Source: Acidobacteriota bacterium (GTDB lineage: Bacteria; Acidobacteriota; UBA6911; JACQSX01; JBPCNK01). From it: a DNA stretch of 50,397 nt. Below the pieces are notes generated by a model. It was not told the DNA's origin and searched no databases. It was given only the letters and a program-made list of their open reading frames with translations. A program made the translations under genes and the position numbers. Below, in pieces: positions 1-20,175 of the stretch. Location: the NCBI GenBank assembly GCA_051001345.1, contig JBPCNK010000126.1:1-50397 (forward strand). The letters run 5' to 3'. The first letter of the stretch is position 1. Each line of letters starts with the position of its first letter.

Positions 1-141
1 CTGGTAGCAGGGCCGGGCCCGTTCGCTTACGCGCGCGGCACCGCCGTTCGCGGCACTGACACCTCTGGCCCGCGACGCGATTGCGGCCCGACGAACGTTC
101 CCCGCCCCTGCCATGAGAAGCAACCATCAACAGTGCCGCGA

Positions 142-3339: not shown

Positions 3340-3420
3340 CTATCTTTCTTTATTCTAGTGCCGTTTCCGATTCGTGCCAAGTCCCATTGGTCAAACGGCC
3401 GGATCCCAAGTTGTTTCTTA

Positions 3421-3898
3421 CCTTTCCACCGTTTGGGTGGTGGGGGACCTCTATGAACATAACTTCCGTGATGTTCGCATAGGATCGAGAGCACGGATCA
3501 CGACCGTCGCTTATCCCGGTCGAGAATTCCATGGAAAAGTCAGTTACATCGATCCCCAGGTCAATCCCGAGACGAGGACCAGCCGGGTCCGCGCCGAGGT
3601 GTCAAACTCGGATGCACGGTTTCGTCTCAACATGTTTGTCGAACTGAGGTTTGAAGGGCGAGGGGACGCAGTCATCAGCGTTCCGGAGCAGGCGGTTCAG
3701 TTTGTCGGGGACCGGGCGGTTGTCTACCAGCCCGATCCAAAGATTGCGGGGAAATTCCTGCAGAAGCCGGTCGAGCTGGGCAACAAGGGCGCGGGTTCTT
3801 ACGAAGTGTTGGGCGGTCTTCAGCCGGGCGGCCGAGTCGTCACCAAGGGGAGTTTCATATTGCGTTCAGAAAGTCTGAGGATGAATCCACAACAATGA
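3421..3898 (+). pseudogene. C-terminal fragment of an RND periplasmic adaptor (duplicate of 15573-16050)
   Basis: Nucleotide similarity to the 3' end of the adaptor gene at 14842..16050 starts abruptly at CCTTTCCACCGTTTGGGTGG. The translation LSTVWVVGDLYEHNFRDVRIGSRARITTVAYPGREF...RSESLRMNPQQ is near-identical. There is no N-terminal part. Confidence 0.85.
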
Positions 3899-4523
3899 CG
3901 ATGAACAGAGTTGAAAAAGCGCTGATGAACAATCCCCTGCGCGCCCTGCTACAGCGGCAGTACGAGGCCCCTCTTATGGAGCGTCTTGGTGGACGCGTGG
4001 AAGGCATGTGCGTTCTTGAAATCGGGTGCGGGCGCGGTATCGGCGCCGAGATCATCTTTGAGCGATTCGGAGCGCGGGAGGTTCATGCCTTCGACCTCGA
4101 CCCAGATATGGTCGAACGGGCCCGCCATCGACTGTCCGGCTACCCCCCCGATCGTCTGCGGCTGTTTGTCGGCGATGCGGCGGCGATTGAAGCGGAAGAC
4201 GAATCATTCGATGCGGTCTTCGATTTCGGGATCATTCACCACATCCCCAACTGGAGACGCGCGGTGTCTGAAGTCGCCCGCGTGCTCCGGCCCGGCGGAC
4301 GGTTTTTTTTGAAGAGGTGACGAGCCATGCGCTCAACCGCTGGTCTTACCGGACATTCCTTGAACACCGGGCCGACAACCGCTTCAGCGGAGAAGAATTC
4401 GTCGCGGAACTTGAACGGCAGAGCATCCGTGTCGGAGGCAACTTCGTCGAGCGGTTCTTCGGCGACTTCATTATCGGCACGGGCCGCAAGATACAAGATG
4501 TGAAGGGTAGCCCCGCCTGCTGA
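3895..4523 (+). pseudogene. Class I SAM-dependent methyltransferase split by a frameshift in a T8 run
   Basis: VLEIGCGRGIG (motif I) and VLRPGGRFF lie in ORF 3895..4320. The rest (EEVTSHALNRWSYRTFLEH...) continues in another frame as ORF 4317..4523. The junction is the T8 run at 4303-4310; nine or six T residues would restore GGRFF(F)EEVTSH. Confidence 0.75.
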
Positions 4524-4602: not shown

Positions 4603-4634
4603 TTTCCTAATTGCCAGAGGAGGACGGTGCCCGA

Positions 4635-5090
4635 ATGGCCCAGGCAGAACTTCGCATTGGTGAACTGGCGGCGCGCACCGGTGTCAGCATCGACACGGTG
4701 CGCTACTATGAGCGCCGGCGCCTGTTGCCGCGCGCTACGCGCACGGGCGGCGGCTTCCGGCTCTTCACACCCGAGACGGTCAAGCGGATTCTCTTTATCA
4801 AACAGGCGCAGCACATCGGCCTTTCGCTGGACACGATTATGGAGCTACTTGCGACACGAGGCGGCGCGGGCCAGTGTCTTCGCGTCAGCGAGCTTTTGCG
4901 CGTCAAGCTAGCAGAGATGGATGAACGCATCAAGGCCATGCGGGATTTTCGCCGAACTCTTTCGGGTCATCTCGCGGCGTGCGAAAGAGAGTTAATGGCG
5001 AGGGGCGCGGCCGCCGCGTGCCCGGTGTTGGAAGGGATCACCCACACCGCCACCTCCCCGAAAGCCGGCCCGCCGAAGGAGAAAAGATGA
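4635..5090 (+). CDS. MerR-family metal-responsive transcriptional regulator
   Basis: LRIGELAARTGVSIDTVRYYERRRLL HTH. Cys residues at GQC, AAC and AACP have MerR-like spacing. A GAGGAGG SD lies upstream of ATG 4635, and the stop overlaps the next start (ATGA). Confidence 0.8.
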   Translation: MAQAELRIGELAARTGVSIDTVRYYERRRLLPRATRTGGGFRLFTPETVKRILFIKQAQHIGLSLDTIMELLATRGGAGQCLRVSELLRVKLAEMDERIKAMRDFRRTLSGHLAACERELMARGAAAACPVLEGITHTATSPKAGPPKEKR

Positions 5091-5722
5091 AAGAGGAAGT
5101 GTTGATGACCAGCGGCGCAGTCGTAGCCGCCGGCGCGGCGAGTCTGTGTTGCATCGGGCCCGTGCTGTTCGCCGCGTTCGGCCTCGGCGCCTTCGGGGCG
5201 GCGACCGTCTTCGAGCCAATGCGGCCGTATCTTTTAGGCGGCGCCGTTCTACTGCTGGCATTCGGCTTCCACCGCGCGTATTTCCGCCGCCAGAGCGTCT
5301 GCGCGCCCGGCGAGGCATGCGCGACCAAACCACTGGACCGAGTGGGGCGCGCCGGGCTATGGATCGCGTCGGTGGCGGTGCTGGCCTTCGCGCTCGCTCC
5401 CTACTACGTCGGCCACATCGCGGCCGCGCTCGTGCGCAGCGAGTCGCCTATGACAACAGCGCCTGCCGCGGCGCCGGCTGCGGAGATGGGCTTCGAAACG
5501 GTCACGGTGCGGGTCGAGGGCATGGACTGCACGAGTTGCGAAATATCGATCAAGGCGGCACTCGAACGGGTGCCGGGCGTGCGCTCGGCGGATGTGAGCT
5601 ACAAACGCGGAGATGTCCGCGTCGAGTACGACAAGCATCAGACCGACGTCAATCAGATCAGGCGGGCCATCGATTCGACGGGTTACAAGACCAAATGGCG
5701 AGAGCCGGCGGGTAGGGACTGA
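5087..5722 (+). CDS. merT: MerT-like mercuric/heavy-metal transporter fused to a C-terminal HMA (MerP-like) domain
   Basis: SLCCIGPVLFAAFGLG...EPMRPYLLGGA...CAPGEAC matches the MerT TM1 CC and loop Cys pair. The C-terminus has VRVEGMDCTSCEISIKAALERVPGV (GMxCxxC). AAGGAG SD is present. Confidence 0.75.
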   Translation: MKEEVLMTSGAVVAAGAASLCCIGPVLFAAFGLGAFGAATVFEPMRPYLLGGAVLLLAFGFHRAYFRRQSVCAPGEACATKPLDRVGRAGLWIASVAVLAFALAPYYVGHIAAALVRSESPMTTAPAAAPAAEMGFETVTVRVEGMDCTSCEISIKAALERVPGVRSADVSYKRGDVRVEYDKHQTDVNQIRRAIDSTGYKTKWREPAGRD

Positions 5723-5763
5723 AGCACAAATTGGGTAGCGCGAGTGAACAAAGGAGACAAGAC

Positions 5764-6357
5764 ATGAAACACTGTTGCGCCGCAAGAGGACAATCCGATA
5801 CGCCGACGGCGCGTCAGGTAAGCCCGGCGGCAGATACGCAGTGCGCGAAGTGCGGCGGGAAAGGGAGCGGCGTCGAGCGCAAGACGGTGCTGCATCACGT
5901 CCTGCCTGCGCTGCTTAACCGGGTCAATGACGAGGTGTATCGCTTCTGCCCCGACCCCGGATGCGCGCTCGTCTACTACGGCGATGGCGGGACACACTTC
6001 ACCGTCAAGGACGTACGCGAACTCGTCACTGTGAAGGCCAGTGGGGACGAGCGGCCCATCTGCTACTGCTTTGGGTTCAACGAAGGCGAGGCGCGCCGGG
6101 AGATCGCCCGCACGGGAACGAGCTCGATCCCGGCGCAGATCAGCGGGCTGATCAAGGCCCGCATGTGCGCCTGCGAGGTGCGCAACCCTTCTGGTGCCTG
6201 CTGCCTCGGACTGGCCACCCAGACGGTCAAATGCCTTTCGGAAGAGCACAAGGCTTCCGCACGTGAGCTTCGAGCGCGGCGGCAGGGGCGGGATTATACA
6301 AAACCCCGTACGGCAATCATCCAAGATTGCAAGTTCTCACCGTTGGTGAACTACTGA
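5764..6357 (+). CDS. Cys-rich metallochaperone-like protein (CopZ N-terminal Zn/Fe-S-type domain suspected)
   Basis: Cys pattern CAKCGGKG...YRFCPDPGCALVYY...ICYCFGF...CACEVRNPSGACCL. AAGGAGA SD precedes ATG 5764. It is third in the mer-like operon. The family assignment is from memory of the motif pattern only. Confidence 0.5.
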   Translation: MKHCCAARGQSDTPTARQVSPAADTQCAKCGGKGSGVERKTVLHHVLPALLNRVNDEVYRFCPDPGCALVYYGDGGTHFTVKDVRELVTVKASGDERPICYCFGFNEGEARREIARTGTSSIPAQISGLIKARMCACEVRNPSGACCLGLATQTVKCLSEEHKASARELRARRQGRDYTKPRTAIIQDCKFSPLVNY

Positions 6358-6527: not shown

Positions 6528-7043
6528 TCATTTGCTTCTTCGGATGTCCTTCAATCGAATTACTGACGGTCCGCGCTTTCCTTTCGTGTCTTGAGCGGGG
6601 ATCGTGCCCTCGAACAACAGATCCTTGCCGCTAGAGGCTTTCAAAATTTCGGCCTTGAGTGCCGCCTTTGGATCGGCGACTACATCAAAAATCTCGTTTG
6701 TTCCGGAGATTCTCACGTGCATTCTTTCACCGACGGATTGAATTTGCCCAACCCCAACGGCATTTGCATCCTTGGGTGAAAAGCCGTTCCGCTTGACCGC
6801 CGCAATGATTTGTTCCATCCGGACGCTGTTGCCGGGTTTCAGGCGAATATTCGCGAATCCCTTGTTCAGGCTGACGTTGACAGATTCGACACCGTCAATC
6901 TTCCGTAGCGTCACGCTCACGGCGTGGGCACAGATGCCTCAGTCCATGCCAAAGATGGTCAGGTCGATTTGGCGAAATTCGGCGCTCGCGTTCAGAGACA
7001 ACGCAAACAGTAGCGTTAGAGCGAGGACAACGTGCTTTCGCAT
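6528..7043 (-). CDS. Secreted HMA-domain protein with in-frame TGA at the first metal-binding Cys (candidate selenoprotein, or a nonsense pseudogene)
   Basis: GAGGTG SD, ATG 7043, signal peptide MRKHVVLALTLLFALSLNASA, then FGMD-TGA(6939-6941)-GICAHAVSVTLRKIDGVESVNVSL...IIAAVKRNGF. The track ORF 6528..6920 is only the part after the TGA. A hairpin follows at 6902-6934. Confidence 0.6.
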
Positions 7044-7052
7044 AAAATCACC

Positions 7053-7919
7053 TCAGAAAAAATAGCTGAAATTCACCGCGATTCGAATCGTTTCACGTCC
7101 TAAACCAGTTCCGACATCGCGGTAAATTGGAAATTGAATGCCGCCTTCGATGGCATAATTCTTGTAGATGCCCAAGGCGCTCGGCCCCGCAAAGATTTGG
7201 TGCGCAGCGGAGTTCGGCATCTTGAGACCTCTTCGTTGCACACGTCCGGATTTTTCTCCGGTCACTTCGAGAAATCCGCGCCAGTCCCAATGGGGATATT
7301 CCTTTCGCAATCCAGGAGGCCGGTACCCCCACACTCCCGAATAGGAAAGGATGTCCGGCCTCTTGTCGCCACGAGCTTCGGCAAAACGTGTGTAGCCCAC
7401 GCCGCCCCATACATAATGGCTGCGTGAAGCCATTCCGGTCGATGCCGCCGAATACAAGCCGGGCGCTCTGCGCAGATCCGTCATCATTCCTCTGCCACGC
7501 TGCGGACCCGGAGCAGTAACGCCGACGTAAGCCGTGCTTTCAAAGCGGGTGCCTACATCGGCTCCTCTGCGGTGGAAGCGCCAGGCGCCGATAGCTTCCA
7601 CATCCGGTGTGGCGCTCATCATGGCCGTTCCTCGCGAAATCGGAAGAGCAGCGCTACTGAGCATGTAGGGGGCGCTAACCGAAAGCTGCAGGTCTTCCGT
7701 GATTCCATAGCTGAGCATCGCGCGCAACATGTTTCCGTTGTTGCTTGCGCCGATGCGTGACATCGTCCCGATATCCAAGCTCCAACCGCCCTTGGCGTTT
7801 GTTGGCGTGGTGAAGCCGAACACGGGTCCGTGACCAGAGGCAAGAGCCGTAAACGATACGAGGCAAAGCTGTACAAATAACAGCGCTGCGAAATGGAATC
7901 CCCCGAGACGCGTAGCCAT
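7053..7919 (-). CDS. Putative outer-membrane beta-barrel protein
   Basis: ATG 7919 with a GAGGG SD. Signal peptide ...LCLVSFTALASG, an alternating hydrophobic pattern, and a C-terminal NFSYFF typical of OMP barrels. A MerR-type promoter lies upstream at 8025-8056. The family was not recognised. Confidence 0.55.
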   Translation of the reverse strand: MATRLGGFHFAALLFVQLCLVSFTALASGHGPVFGFTTPTNAKGGWSLDIGTMSRIGASNNGNMLRAMLSYGITEDLQLSVSAPYMLSSAALPISRGTAMMSATPDVEAIGAWRFHRRGADVGTRFESTAYVGVTAPGPQRGRGMMTDLRRAPGLYSAASTGMASRSHYVWGGVGYTRFAEARGDKRPDILSYSGVWGYRPPGLRKEYPHWDWRGFLEVTGEKSGRVQRRGLKMPNSAAHQIFAGPSALGIYKNYAIEGGIQFPIYRDVGTGLGRETIRIAVNFSYFF

Positions 7920-8343: not shown

Positions 8344-8814
8344 CTAAACAGCACTGCGACCACTGACGTTCCGTTTCCTACGCTTCGCATGAATGCCGGC
8401 CTTTCCTCCTGTTTCCATTGTCCGCTCGATGAGGGTGCAAATCACGTCCGCGGACAACTTTCGGTCACCTGATGCTTTCCAACGCGCGACGGCGCGGGTC
8501 AACTCGCTGGCGAAAGTCCGAAGCTGGCGGATTTGGCGCTGAGTGCGCTGCAAGTGTCGTTCGGCAATCGAGATCACGTCGTTGCATGGGCACTGGCCTT
8601 GCTCCCGCATTTTGAGGACGTCGCGGATTTCATCCAGTGAGAAGCCGAACTCTTTCGCGTGGCGGATAAACCTCAGCCGATGCAGATCCTCATCATCATA
8701 GATTCGATATCCTGACTCACTCCGCTCGGGATCGGGCAGGAGCTTCTGACGCTCGTAGAACCGCACGGTTTGGACGGAAACAGCAGCTTGCGACGCGAGT
8801 TCCCCGATTCGCAT
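8344..8814 (-). CDS. MerR-family metal-responsive transcriptional regulator
   Basis: MRIGELASQAAVSVQTVRFYERQKLLPDP HTH, with GQCPC and ICT Cys residues in the effector region. The leader is very short (the -10 box ends 9 nt before the ATG). Confidence 0.8.
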   Translation of the reverse strand: MRIGELASQAAVSVQTVRFYERQKLLPDPERSESGYRIYDDEDLHRLRFIRHAKEFGFSLDEIRDVLKMREQGQCPCNDVISIAERHLQRTQRQIRQLRTFASELTRAVARWKASGDRKLSADVICTLIERTMETGGKAGIHAKRRKRNVSGRSAV

Positions 8815-18122: not shown

Positions 18123-20175
18123 GTGCCAAACACTTTGAAAACGATTGTGGCCGGATCCGCGCTGCTTTTCTTGACGGCGGCAGCCGGCCTGGTCCAGGGA
18201 CAGCAGGCCGCGCAGTCACAGCCGCGCGGAACCATCTCTGGAGTCGTGCTCGACGTGTCCAGTGGCAACGTCCAGCGGGGCGCCAAGGTGACCGTCGTCG
18301 ACGGACAAGCTGCGGCCGAGAGCGACATGGACGGTCTATATAGTATCGAAGTACCCGCCGGCCGCTACGATTTGCACGTGAGCCACGTCGGCTTCATCGA
18401 CCTGAAGATTCAAAACGTGAGGGTCAAAGCCGGCGAGATCACTTACCAGGACGTGGCGCTCAACTCGGTCAACGCCAGCCTGGGCTCGGTCACCGTCGTA
18501 GCCGAAGCCGAAACCGCCTCGGAAGTGGCGTTGCTGTCTGAGAGGAAAAATGCCGCCGTGGTGACCGACAACATCGGCGCCCAGGAGATCTCAAAGACTC
18601 CCGGCTCGGACGCGGCCGACGTGATGGCCCGTGTGACGGGCGTCTCCATCGTCGATGGGAAATACGTCTACGTAAGGGGCCTGGGCGAGCGCTACAGCAG
18701 CACGATGCTCAACGGCGCTATCATCCCGACCACGCAGCCCGATAAGAGGGTCGTGCCGCTGGACCTGTTTCCTTCGAGCCTGCTGGAGAATATCCGAACG
18801 GAGAAGACGTACTCTCCCGATCAGCCCGGTGAATTCTCGGCTGGCCTCGTCAAGCTCGAGACTAGCGACTTCCCGAGGAAGGCCATGCTGAAACTGTCAT
18901 TCCAGCAAGGCTTCCATAGCAATACCACCTTCAAGGATTTCAGCACCTACCGCGGCGGCGCGCATGACTGGATCGGCTTTGACAACGGCACGCGATCGCT
19001 GCCGGCTTTGATTCCGTCCCAGAGGGTCGTTCCCTTCAGCCCGTTTACGAAGCGCGGCTTCACACCCGAGCAAATCGAGAGTTTCGGCCAAGCATTTCCC
19101 AATGTCTGGGACCCCGCCGTCAAGCAGGCGCCGCCGAACCAGAGCTTCAATCTATTCGCCGGTAACACCTTCGGAGAGCTGGGGCTGGCCTTTTCGCTGG
19201 CGCACGCCAACCAGTTTGAGAACCAGGCTGAGCGGCAAAATATCTACACGGTGTCGAGCGGACAACTGGACCCGCTGGCGTTTCATCGGCGGGGGCCGTT
19301 TGGAGGCCTCTAATCAGAACGTGGCGACCTTCGACCTCTTCAATGTCAACGTGACGCCGGTGGTATCGCGCCTCGGCAACACCGACTTCCTTCCGTCGCT
19401 CAGTGCGATTTACAAAATCAACGGCTCGATGAACCTTCGTGGGGCCTACAGCCGTACGCTCAACCGGCCCGAGTTCCGGGAGCTGGCGCCGTTCGATTTT
19501 ACCGACGTGGTGGGAGGCCGGTCGATCATAGGAACTCCAGACCTGGTGCGGGCGCGGATCCAAAACTATGACGCCCGCTGGGAGTGGTTCGTCAGCGCAG
19601 CCGAGCTTGTAGCTGTGAGCTATTTTTTCAAGAGCTTCAAGGATCCGATCGAACGTGTCGTCGAGCCCACAGCGGCGCTCCGGACCTCCTTCCGCAACGC
19701 CCAAGGCGCCCGCAACCAGGGAGTCGAGATGGAGGTCCGCAAGCATCTTGGACGGGGCTTTCTGATCGCGTCGAATTACACGTTCGTGGATTCCGAGATT
19801 GAGTTGCGGCCCGAGGCCTTGAACGTCGCCACTTCCAAAAAGCGGCCTCTTGCCGGACAGTCGCGCCACCTCTTCAACGGCATCGTCGAGTACCGCCACT
19901 CCGGCTCGGGACCGCTGACACGGCTGTTGTTCAACTATATCGGCAGCCGGATCGCCGACGTTGGCGCATTCGGATTGCCGGACATTTTGGAGGATGGATA
20001 TCCGCAGTTGGATTTTCTGGTGAATGTCCCGCTGGGAGAGTCCGGCTGGGCCCTGAAGTTCAGCGCGGAAAACCTGCTGGACAGAGAAAAGCGTTTCAGC
20101 CAGGGAGGGTTGCCCCACCGGGTCTTCAGGGACGGGCGTACGTTCAAGGCTGGCCTCGCGATGTCGTTCTTTTAG
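18123..20175 (+). pseudogene. TonB-dependent receptor (CarboxypepD_reg-like N-terminus plus plug) with a frame break and probably an internal deletion
   Basis: ORF 18123..19313 carries GTISGVVLDVSSGNVQRGAKVTV and the plug (VYVRGLGERYSSTMLNG...DKRVVPLDLFPS). The barrel C-terminus (WRFIGGGRLE...NRPEFRELAPF...TFKAGLAMSFF) is in the +1 frame in ORF 19102..20175. The switch lies near 19265-19285. Confidence 0.7.

Follow-up and report, generated by a model that had tools for sequence, protein, structure and literature searches.

A candidate selenocysteine-containing HMA protein family encoded with an outer-membrane beta-barrel in Acidobacteriota and Gemmatimonadota

An in-frame TGA in a gene for a predicted secreted HMA protein

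We analyzed a 50,397-nucleotide stretch of DNA from an Acidobacteriota bacterium (contig JBPCNK010000126.1 of assembly GCA_051001345.1), which is referred to here as the window. On its minus strand, directly downstream of a gene for a predicted outer-membrane beta-barrel, was a gene for a small, predicted secreted protein with a heavy-metal-associated (HMA) domain, and an in-frame TGA occupied the position of the first Cys in the metal-binding motif of that domain. The comparative evidence presented here indicated that this TGA is very probably a selenocysteine (Sec) codon with a selenocysteine insertion sequence (SECIS) element. The features of the gene were as follows.

6528..7043, minus strand: complete coding sequence of the HMA(UxxC) protein, 171 codons including the putative Sec35, with its own stop codon TGA at 6530..6528
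7049..7054, minus strand: Shine-Dalgarno sequence GAGGTG, read directly, overlapping the barrel-gene TGA stop codon at 7055..7053
7043..7041, minus strand: start codon ATG, 9 nt after the upstream barrel-gene stop codon
6981..7043, minus strand: predicted signal peptide MRKHVVLALTLLFALSLNASA, then EF, from the translation and judged by sequence character, homologues, and model
6939..6941, minus strand: in-frame TGA, putative Sec codon, at the first Cys position of the GMxCxxC metal-binding loop
6780..6962, minus strand: HMA domain with a ferredoxin-like beta-alpha-beta-beta-alpha-beta order, spanning the TGA, from the Pfam match (residues 28-88) and an orthologue model
6531..6731, minus strand: C-terminal beta-rich domain, about residues 105-171, from confident strands in the orthologue model

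As read directly from the DNA, the signal peptide MRKHVVLALTLLFALSLNASA was followed by EFRQIDLTIFGMD, the TGA at 6941..6939, and GICAHAVSVTLRKIDGVESV, which gave the motif FGMD-TGA-GICAHAV. Beyond this TGA, 136 codons stayed open up to the TGA at 6530..6528. A mechanical list of open reading frames (ORFs) held only the tail of the gene (6528..6920). The first-pass annotation of the window had proposed that this ORF was the end of a longer frame with an upstream GAGGTG, an ATG at 7043, a signal peptide, and the FGMD-TGA-GICAHAV motif; all of these were present where it had placed them, and the frame was open from 7043 to 6528. It had also described the frame as HMA-like, which agreed with a match of the Pfam HMA domain (PF00403) to residues 28-88 (39.9 bits against a cut-off of 24.8 and an E value of 5.5e-10, with U replaced by C). 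Based on this match, the TGA sat at the first Cys of GMxCxxC. Because TGA also served as the true stop codon of both the HMA gene and the upstream barrel gene, the genetic code was not reassigned.

A structure model of a Sec-form orthologue, P0004, stood in for the window protein (predicted local distance difference test [pLDDT] score of 87). The model had a classical HMA fold, with a strand at residues 23-31, a helix at residues 36-47, and the metal loop before helix 1, and its template modeling (TM) scores, normalized to the target, were 0.8-0.9 against CopZ, MerP, and P-type ATPase HMA domains. The N-terminus was unstructured in this model, and the N-termini of homologues were hydrophobic, with small residues at the end before EF or QL. 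For the C-terminal domain, a structure search with the P0004 model gave no PDB match, all matches being confined to the HMA part.

Conservation of the TGA and Cys forms among homologues

One genome per species was scanned with the DNA pattern GGNATGGAYTGAGSNNTNTGYGCNNNNGCNGTN, in which only the amino-acid-determining bases were fixed. The scan of these species-representative genomes yielded 87 stretches with TGA at the identical codon, and all 87 encoded the same protein (signal peptide, FGMD-U-xxC, and full HMA domain). Among the 80 titles listed for the 87 stretches, 49 were Acidobacteriota, 19 were Gemmatimonadota, and 12 were other or unclassified. The frame was lost about 45-80 codons past the TGA in L111 and L147, which were the sole disrupted copies among 97 TGA-form stretches and are possibly pseudogenes or assembly frameshifts; five other stretches of the 87 ended at a contig or locus boundary. 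Two metagenome-assembled genomes, JBHELH01 and DASYUL01, each carried two TGA-form copies on different contigs (L100 and L136; L147 and L168).

Protein homologues fell into two length classes, one of about 160-175 residues with GMDCxxC and one of about 113-140 residues. The shorter homologues began just past the motif (MSVAIKKI, MCAHAV, or VCARAV), and NCBI names one such truncated member "heavy-metal-associated domain-containing protein." When the contigs of truncated homologues were inspected (loci L001-L009), a TGA was found at the same codon in 9/9, with a signal peptide and FGMD before it. The Joint Genome Institute (JGI) protein P0004, from L007, shows a "W" at this site. The underlying DNA was TGA, and the L007 contig had evidently been called with a code that treats TGA as sense. 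Gene calls of this kind hide Sec codons as tryptophan.

Across the 87 stretches and L001-L009, the protein was conserved on both flanks of the TGA. Downstream of the TGA, G51, V52, and V55 were invariant, and E53 and S54 were near-invariant. A close relative from an independent run, L177 (about 87-90% nucleotide identity), retained the TGA, and over the HMA codons 36-95 after the TGA, it differed from the window by nine synonymous and two non-synonymous changes.

Homologues with Cys had TGC or TGT at the site where the Sec forms had TGA. These Cys forms, which served as a control set, came from metagenome contigs and were found with a pattern forcing Cys. Some were 74-76% identical to the Sec form L139, compared with a median identity of 42% for Sec-Sec pairs, and the Cys-form orthologues shared a gene neighborhood with the Sec forms. 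The orthologue alignment that the first-pass annotation had recommended as a check showed a codon that was either TGA or TGC/TGT and a downstream sequence that was conserved in the TGA forms.

A conserved RNA hairpin after the TGA

The mRNA downstream of the TGA could form the structures listed here, which are numbered from the T of the TGA as +1.

6911..6927, minus strand: SECIS-like hairpin, +15..+31, with stem N-CACGC/GCGUG-N and loop C-G-U-G-A, conserved in the family
6902..6934, minus strand: lower stem, +8..+14 with +33..+40, window-specific, extending the hairpin

In the window, CACGC (+16..+20) and GCGUG (+26..+30) enclosed the loop CGUGA (+21..+25), as had been described from the sequence. 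The family element was a 6-bp helix (positions 15-20 with 26-31) with the loop C21-G22-U23-G24-A/C25 (CGUGM). The first-pass annotation had extended the hairpin with the lower stem, and here only the upper stem stood at the family level: the lower stem paired in the window and was 67% paired across the family, with two of its pairs mostly broken.

The hairpin was under a constraint specific to TGA forms. Among 84 distinct sequences of the Sec form, conservation was 96-100% at the third-codon positions +18, +21, +24, +27, and +30, whereas at the remaining third positions, with invariant Gly and Val codons among them, it was 39-75%. The same five positions were 48-61% conserved in 69 Cys-form sequences. 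The Sec-form consensus was CAC GCC GTG MGC GTG, and in the codon at +25..27, Ser was always encoded by AGC and Arg was always encoded by CGC. Positions +25 to +30 lay outside the search pattern, and the nine loci found via protein homology carried the same sequence there. The mean local folding energy of +13..+33 was -9.06 kcal/mol for the Sec forms versus -1.45 kcal/mol for the Cys forms. In the case of the Cys form L178 (TGC; 74% identical to the Sec form L139), which lacked G22 and G30, the hairpin was weakened from -8.0 to -3.6 kcal/mol.

Covariation was also examined. The 15-31 pair, which links a synonymous site with the first base of the next-but-four codon, had the top mutual information of all column pairs tested; in the 84 sequences, it was C-G in 57, A-U in 5, U-A in 5, G-U in 4, and U-G in 2, with 11 mismatches. 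Across 83 distinct sequences, the helix was 97% paired, and its covariation score was 0.124 versus 0.051 +/- 0.008 for shuffles (0/500 reached the observed value) and 0.009-0.029 for slid partners. The RNAalifold consensus was the same hairpin. In the Armatimonadota locus L155 (L155:4659-4706, minus strand), the residues after the motif were UAVCAAAVGSTV, and a different 6-bp hairpin, CCGUUG-GUU-CAACGG, occupied the same place (+20..+34), which suggests that the structure was kept while the sequence changed. A search of other genes for the hairpin motif CACGCCGTGMGCGTG, as a possible common SelB site, located it in the HMA gene only.

Evidence for selenocysteine and alternative readings of the TGA

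The bacterial SECIS (bSECIS) model calls for a loop of 3-9 nt, an upper stem of 4-16 bp, a G in the first two loop positions, a spacing of 16-37 nt, and a minimum free energy at or below -7.5 kcal/mol (PMC13188914). The family element had a 5-nt loop (CGUGM), a stem of 5-6 bp, a G followed by a U, and a spacing of 17 nt, all within the limits of the model. With the consensus pairs enforced, the energy was at or below -7.5 kcal/mol in 83/84 sequences and was -13.2 kcal/mol in the window. Two further tests for selenoprotein genes gave positive results: the in-frame UGA aligned with Cys in homologues, and both of its flanks were conserved in independent TGA-containing homologues. Together, the conserved TGA, the Cys-form orthologues, the TGA-specific synonymous constraint, and the fit to bSECIS argued strongly for the original proposal of a Sec codon with a SECIS-like hairpin.

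The UGA at 6941..6939 would be read as Sec via the standard bacterial route, in which SelB and Sec-tRNA(Sec) are recruited by the downstream mRNA hairpin, and the loop would place G22-U23 17 nt after the UGA. From the sequence, we infer that Sec would be inserted at this UGA and that selABCD would be present. Acidobacteria include Sec-using species (PMC1794560; PMC12013277). Nothing on Sec use in Acidobacteria or Gemmatimonadetes was found in Peng et al. 2016 or in PMC8318568, and no statement of Sec use was found in the literature for Gemmatimonadota.

Several observations weighed against the Sec reading. In the family, the upper stem was almost invariant, and the covariation came mainly from one pair and a few rare changes. 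In the window, the fold of 66 nt had a z score of -0.02 versus shuffles, and the closing pair was a C15/A31 mismatch, leaving 5 bp. The minimum-energy fold of the window sequence was a competing hairpin (+20..+39) that was 0.9 kcal/mol better (-14.1 kcal/mol unconstrained versus -13.2 kcal/mol with consensus pairs enforced), and the consensus-pair probability was about 0.10. Searches of the window against Rfam with gathering and permissive thresholds detected no SECIS family, and the sole match was a chance small RNA (E value of 4.8). ARAGORN found no tRNA gene in the window and no tRNA-Sec gene in the 50-kb window plus 60 related loci. A tblastn search with E. coli SelA, SelB, and SelD gave 0 matches in the window or in some 1 Mb of related loci, a search that is uninformative on whole genomes. 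Finally, several other genes in the window looked fragmented, and local decay or an assembly error is possible. Because the hairpin of the window was no more stable than shuffled sequence, the window sequence alone cannot decide the Sec reading; the comparison with homologues decides it.

The observations on the hairpin also bear on the idea that the family is a true selenoprotein family and the window copy is a weakened or inactive allele. Within the element, L177 differed from the window only by a C15-to-U change, and this U paired with A31 and raised the consensus-pair probability to 0.98. In addition to the mismatch, the CC-motif gene that usually lies downstream was not in the window, and fragmented genes occurred elsewhere in the window. 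On the other hand, the 15-31 pair was also broken in 11/84 family members and is hence tolerated, the lower stem of the window brought the enforced fold to -13.2 kcal/mol, and the frame, signal peptide, Shine-Dalgarno sequence, and HMA residues were all intact. We consider a weakened allele unlikely.

A second alternative is that the UGA is recoded as Cys, Ser, or Trp by a suppressor tRNA, either an allo-tRNA or a selC*-type tRNA(Cys) acting with a SelB paralogue. There are precedents: Acidobacteria have tRNA(Sec)-like allo-tRNAs with a possible role in nonsense suppression, and a UCA-anticodon tRNA(Cys) that mimics tRNA(Sec) occurs in Deltaproteobacteria (PMC5389517). The lack of a Sec machinery gene among the window and related loci searched is also compatible with suppression. 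However, the selC* tRNAs were reported outside these phyla (PMC5389517), and general suppression would be costly where TGA is the real stop codon of this gene and the upstream gene. Furthermore, the hairpin fit a SelB-dependent bSECIS in loop size, G-U bases, spacing, and energy, whereas plain suppression needs no hairpin, and alternation of Cys and Sec at a CxxC that binds metal is the classic signature of a selenoprotein (PMC13188914). Suppression therefore seemed quite improbable as an explanation of the family.

Termination at the UGA followed by a restart at GTG 6920 would yield two products, a peptide of 34 residues and a protein of 130 residues. Gene callers predict just such split ORFs, but the HMA fold needs both strand 1, which is upstream of the TGA, and helix 1, which is downstream, and the signal peptide is encoded upstream only. 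In addition, the downstream starts were not conserved, as the called starts varied (MSVA, VSVA, MCAH, VAVK, and MKKI), and this explanation is highly improbable. The remaining alternative, a TGY-to-TGA nonsense mutation in a decaying pseudogene, had been raised in the first-pass annotation and would suit the split or truncated genes elsewhere in the window (TonB-dependent receptor, OEP, and HlyD) and the unexceptional stability of the window hairpin, but it can be dismissed because the TGA and the downstream frame were conserved across phyla, with the same TGA and intact frames on both sides in the 87 stretches and the nine loci, mostly synonymous change downstream in L177, and RNA-level constraint specific to the TGA forms.

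Genes near the HMA gene

The genes that bear on the function of the putative Sec protein were as follows.

7053..7919, minus strand: upstream partner gene, secreted 12-stranded outer-membrane beta-barrel of about 280 residues that ends in FSYFF, from the model and synteny
8344..8814, minus strand: gene for a metal-responsive regulator of the MerR family, upstream of the barrel gene
4979..5722, plus strand: Cys form of a MerT-HMA fusion, convergent, MerTP_fusion score of 114.8 bits, under the 180-bit cut-off

A barrel homologue was located directly upstream of the HMA gene and on the same strand in 92/97 TGA-form stretches and in 73/80 Cys-form loci, and the barrel-gene stop codon fell inside the HMA-gene Shine-Dalgarno sequence. 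The barrel protein had >1,095 homologues, all "hypothetical" where named, and profile searches placed it in no Pfam or NCBIfam family. Its structure model had a pLDDT score of 86.5, and the nearest structures were FapF (5o68; E value of 1e-8) and the COG4313 outer-membrane channel (4rl8).

A third gene found beside the barrel-HMA pair encoded a CC-motif membrane protein of about 140 residues, with LGTLxCCALP and a second Cys pair (e.g., L002:5185-5616 and L178:3521-3943). It was present in 56/92 Sec loci and 67/80 Cys loci, and its sole resemblance, a weak one, was to the MerT portion of known fusions (E value of 7e-4). In Gemmatimonadota, the CC-motif gene tended to precede the barrel gene instead of following the HMA gene.

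Links to mercury genes were found in some of the loci. In 34 Sec-form loci, a MerR homologue was no more than 4 kb away. L123 (4444-6207) and L170 (2068-3528) carried a true MerA gene next to the barrel gene on its upstream side (TIGR02053 scores of 543 and 529 bits, respectively; cut-off of 454). MerA-like genes were present in 14 Sec-form loci and in 0/80 Cys-form loci; the Cys loci had shorter flanks, and this contrast is only suggestive.

Proposed function of the HMA protein

The HMA protein would be made from the same operon as the 12-stranded outer-membrane barrel and exported to the periplasm, probably under the control of the adjacent MerR-type regulator. There, the Sec35 selenolate and the Cys38 thiolate, possibly with Asp34, may bind a soft, thiophilic metal in the loop G-M-D-U-G-I-C. 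The Asp before Sec recalls the GMDC loop of ZntA. The leading candidate metal would be Hg(II), because of the MerR and MerA links, and Cd, Pb, Zn, Cu(I), and Ag(I) are also possible.

The small CC-motif, weakly MerT-like inner-membrane protein would belong to the set in most genomes. Metal could be handed over between the outer-membrane barrel and the inner-membrane CC-motif or MerT-type protein, so that the set would work as a MerP-like relay from the outer membrane through the periplasm to the inner membrane and would feed a true MerA in some genomes. Three features of the window weighed against a metal assignment: the best profile matches of its MerR protein (8344..8814) were ZntR, MerR, CadR, and CueR, all under the equivalog cut-offs; the window had no MerA gene; and the usual CC-motif gene was absent from it. 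Because of this last absence, the MerT-HMA fusion may act as the inner-membrane acceptor in the window.

For a MerP-like role in soft-metal handling together with the barrel, we consider the case evenly balanced. The first-pass annotation had called the protein a metallochaperone; a metal-binding HMA protein stood, and a secreted, MerP-like periplasmic protein paired with an outer-membrane barrel would be the better description. The wider proposal, that an uncatalogued selenium-dependent metal relay across the cell envelope is widespread in soil Acidobacteriota and Gemmatimonadota, is a tentative one. This relay would combine a dedicated outer-membrane channel of 12 strands with a Sec-containing, MerP-like carrier in the periplasm and a small CC-motif protein in the inner membrane, together with a regulator of the MerR type and, in some genomes, a true MerA.

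Comparison with known selenoproteins and metal-binding proteins

The UxxC motif of P-type ATPase selenoproteins probably lies in an N-terminal HMA domain. These P-type ATPase (E1-E2) proteins, of which ABB15669.1 of Carboxydothermus hydrogenoformans is an example, have a heavy-metal role (PMC9312934, PMC13188914). If their UxxC is in the HMA domain, they share with the window protein the replacement of the first Cys by Sec and a presumed ligand role. However, the HMA domain of the ATPase would be an appendage on the cytoplasmic side of a membrane pump, whereas the window protein would be free and secreted, with an extra beta domain. At 171 residues, its only recognized domain is HMA, it has no ATPase or hydrolase domains, and it has a barrel partner.

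Reviews list three related families, namely, the UxxC P-type ATPase, a UxxU metal-binding protein (NF041115), and MerT-type proteins (PMC9312934, PMC13188914). The best NCBIfam match of the window protein was NF041115, the "UxxU metal-binding (seleno)protein" (formerly "putative mercuric reductase" of an Olavius symbiont), and the score was 49.7 bits, below the cut-off of 95. This family is likewise a small HMA-type metal-binding selenoprotein, but its motif is UxxU and its model has 74 positions, in contrast to the UxxC, 171 residues, signal peptide, and second domain of the window protein. The MerT/CopZ fusion-like selenoprotein model NF045683 scored 16.4 bits against a cut-off of 375, and unlike that family, in which a MerT membrane domain is joined to HMA, the window protein had no membrane domain. 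Because no curated selenoprotein model reached its cut-off, the proteins described here form a new family of a known kind of protein.

The window protein also resembled MerP (TIGR02052; PDB 1osd and 1afi), with which it shares a signal peptide and an HMA fold with a GMxCxxC loop. The TM score of MerP, normalized to the target, was about 0.75-0.84 against the P0004 model, and some family members share an operon with MerR and a true MerA and adjoin a CC-motif membrane protein. The score of the TIGR02052 model was 35.8 bits, below the cut-off of 92.55. Two differences from MerP were the Sec in place of the first Cys and the extra C-terminal domain of about 70 residues; moreover, canonical mer operons are without an outer-membrane barrel partner, whereas the window family has one. 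A "MerP" selenoprotein entry in the Global Ocean Sampling (GOS) survey comprised two sequences, with no motif given (PMC2398784).

In the case of the RNA element, the hairpin just 3' of the UGA, with a small apical loop containing G then U, a 17-nt spacing, and an energy below -7.5 kcal/mol, was shared with bacterial SECIS elements (E. coli fdhF type; Zhang and Gladyshev consensus, PMC13188914). Unlike those elements, the family had a short (5-6 bp), near-invariant stem, no conserved bulged U or lower stem, and no Rfam match.

The literature searched contained no account of a secreted HMA(UxxC) protein with a barrel partner or of a Sec-MerP module; the relatives described there were the P-type ATPase, UxxU, and MerT families and the GOS "MerP" entry. 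The decoding would be standard, the domain is known, and Sec in metal-binding proteins has precedent; what is uncatalogued is the family itself, together with its architecture and gene module.

Implications for annotation and metal handling

Present selenoprotein catalogues do not include the family, and its genes are regularly annotated as truncated. In about ninety species-level genomes and numerous metagenome contigs, the gene appears as two pieces, a stub of 34-39 residues and an "HMA domain protein" of 113-140 residues, and a single family model would repair all of these annotations. Catalogued selenoproteomes are richest in Deltaproteobacteria and Clostridia (PMC1794560); the present family would add one from soil Acidobacteriota and Gemmatimonadota. 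In this family, Sec is proposed to act in the periplasm as a metal ligand and not as a redox residue. The tight coupling of the barrel family (>1,000 members, unannotated) to the HMA protein gives the barrel a testable role in metal traffic. If the mercury link is true, selenium availability would be tied to mercury detoxification in soils. If the relay is true, these abundant soil phyla would need a supply of selenium for handling mercury or other soft metals, and selenium-mercury antagonism in bacteria would have a direct form that is encoded genetically.

Other genes in the window

Some genes in the window were split or truncated. A TonB-dependent receptor was divided between two overlapping ORFs (18123-19313 and 19102-20175, plus strand), short OEP and HlyD fragments were located at 2117-2632 and 3374-3898 (plus strand), and a 141-residue methyltransferase at 3895-4320 (plus strand) was apparently truncated. 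Frameshifts, decay, or errors of assembly may account for these genes, which correspond to the decaying region mentioned in the first-pass annotation.

Overall, the window is a metal-resistance island with pumps of the CusA/CzcA type, a P-type ATPase of the Cd family, a multicopper oxidase, and two MerR genes. The second MerR gene was in a plus-strand segment (4611-6357) convergent to the HMA(U) gene, together with the MerT-HMA fusion gene and a gene for a CopZ_Nterm_CC iron-sulfur metallochaperone, which scored 130 bits against a 100-bit cut-off. The MerT-HMA fusion and the CopZ_Nterm_CC protein were Cys forms of families with known selenoprotein variants (NF045683 and NF045877).

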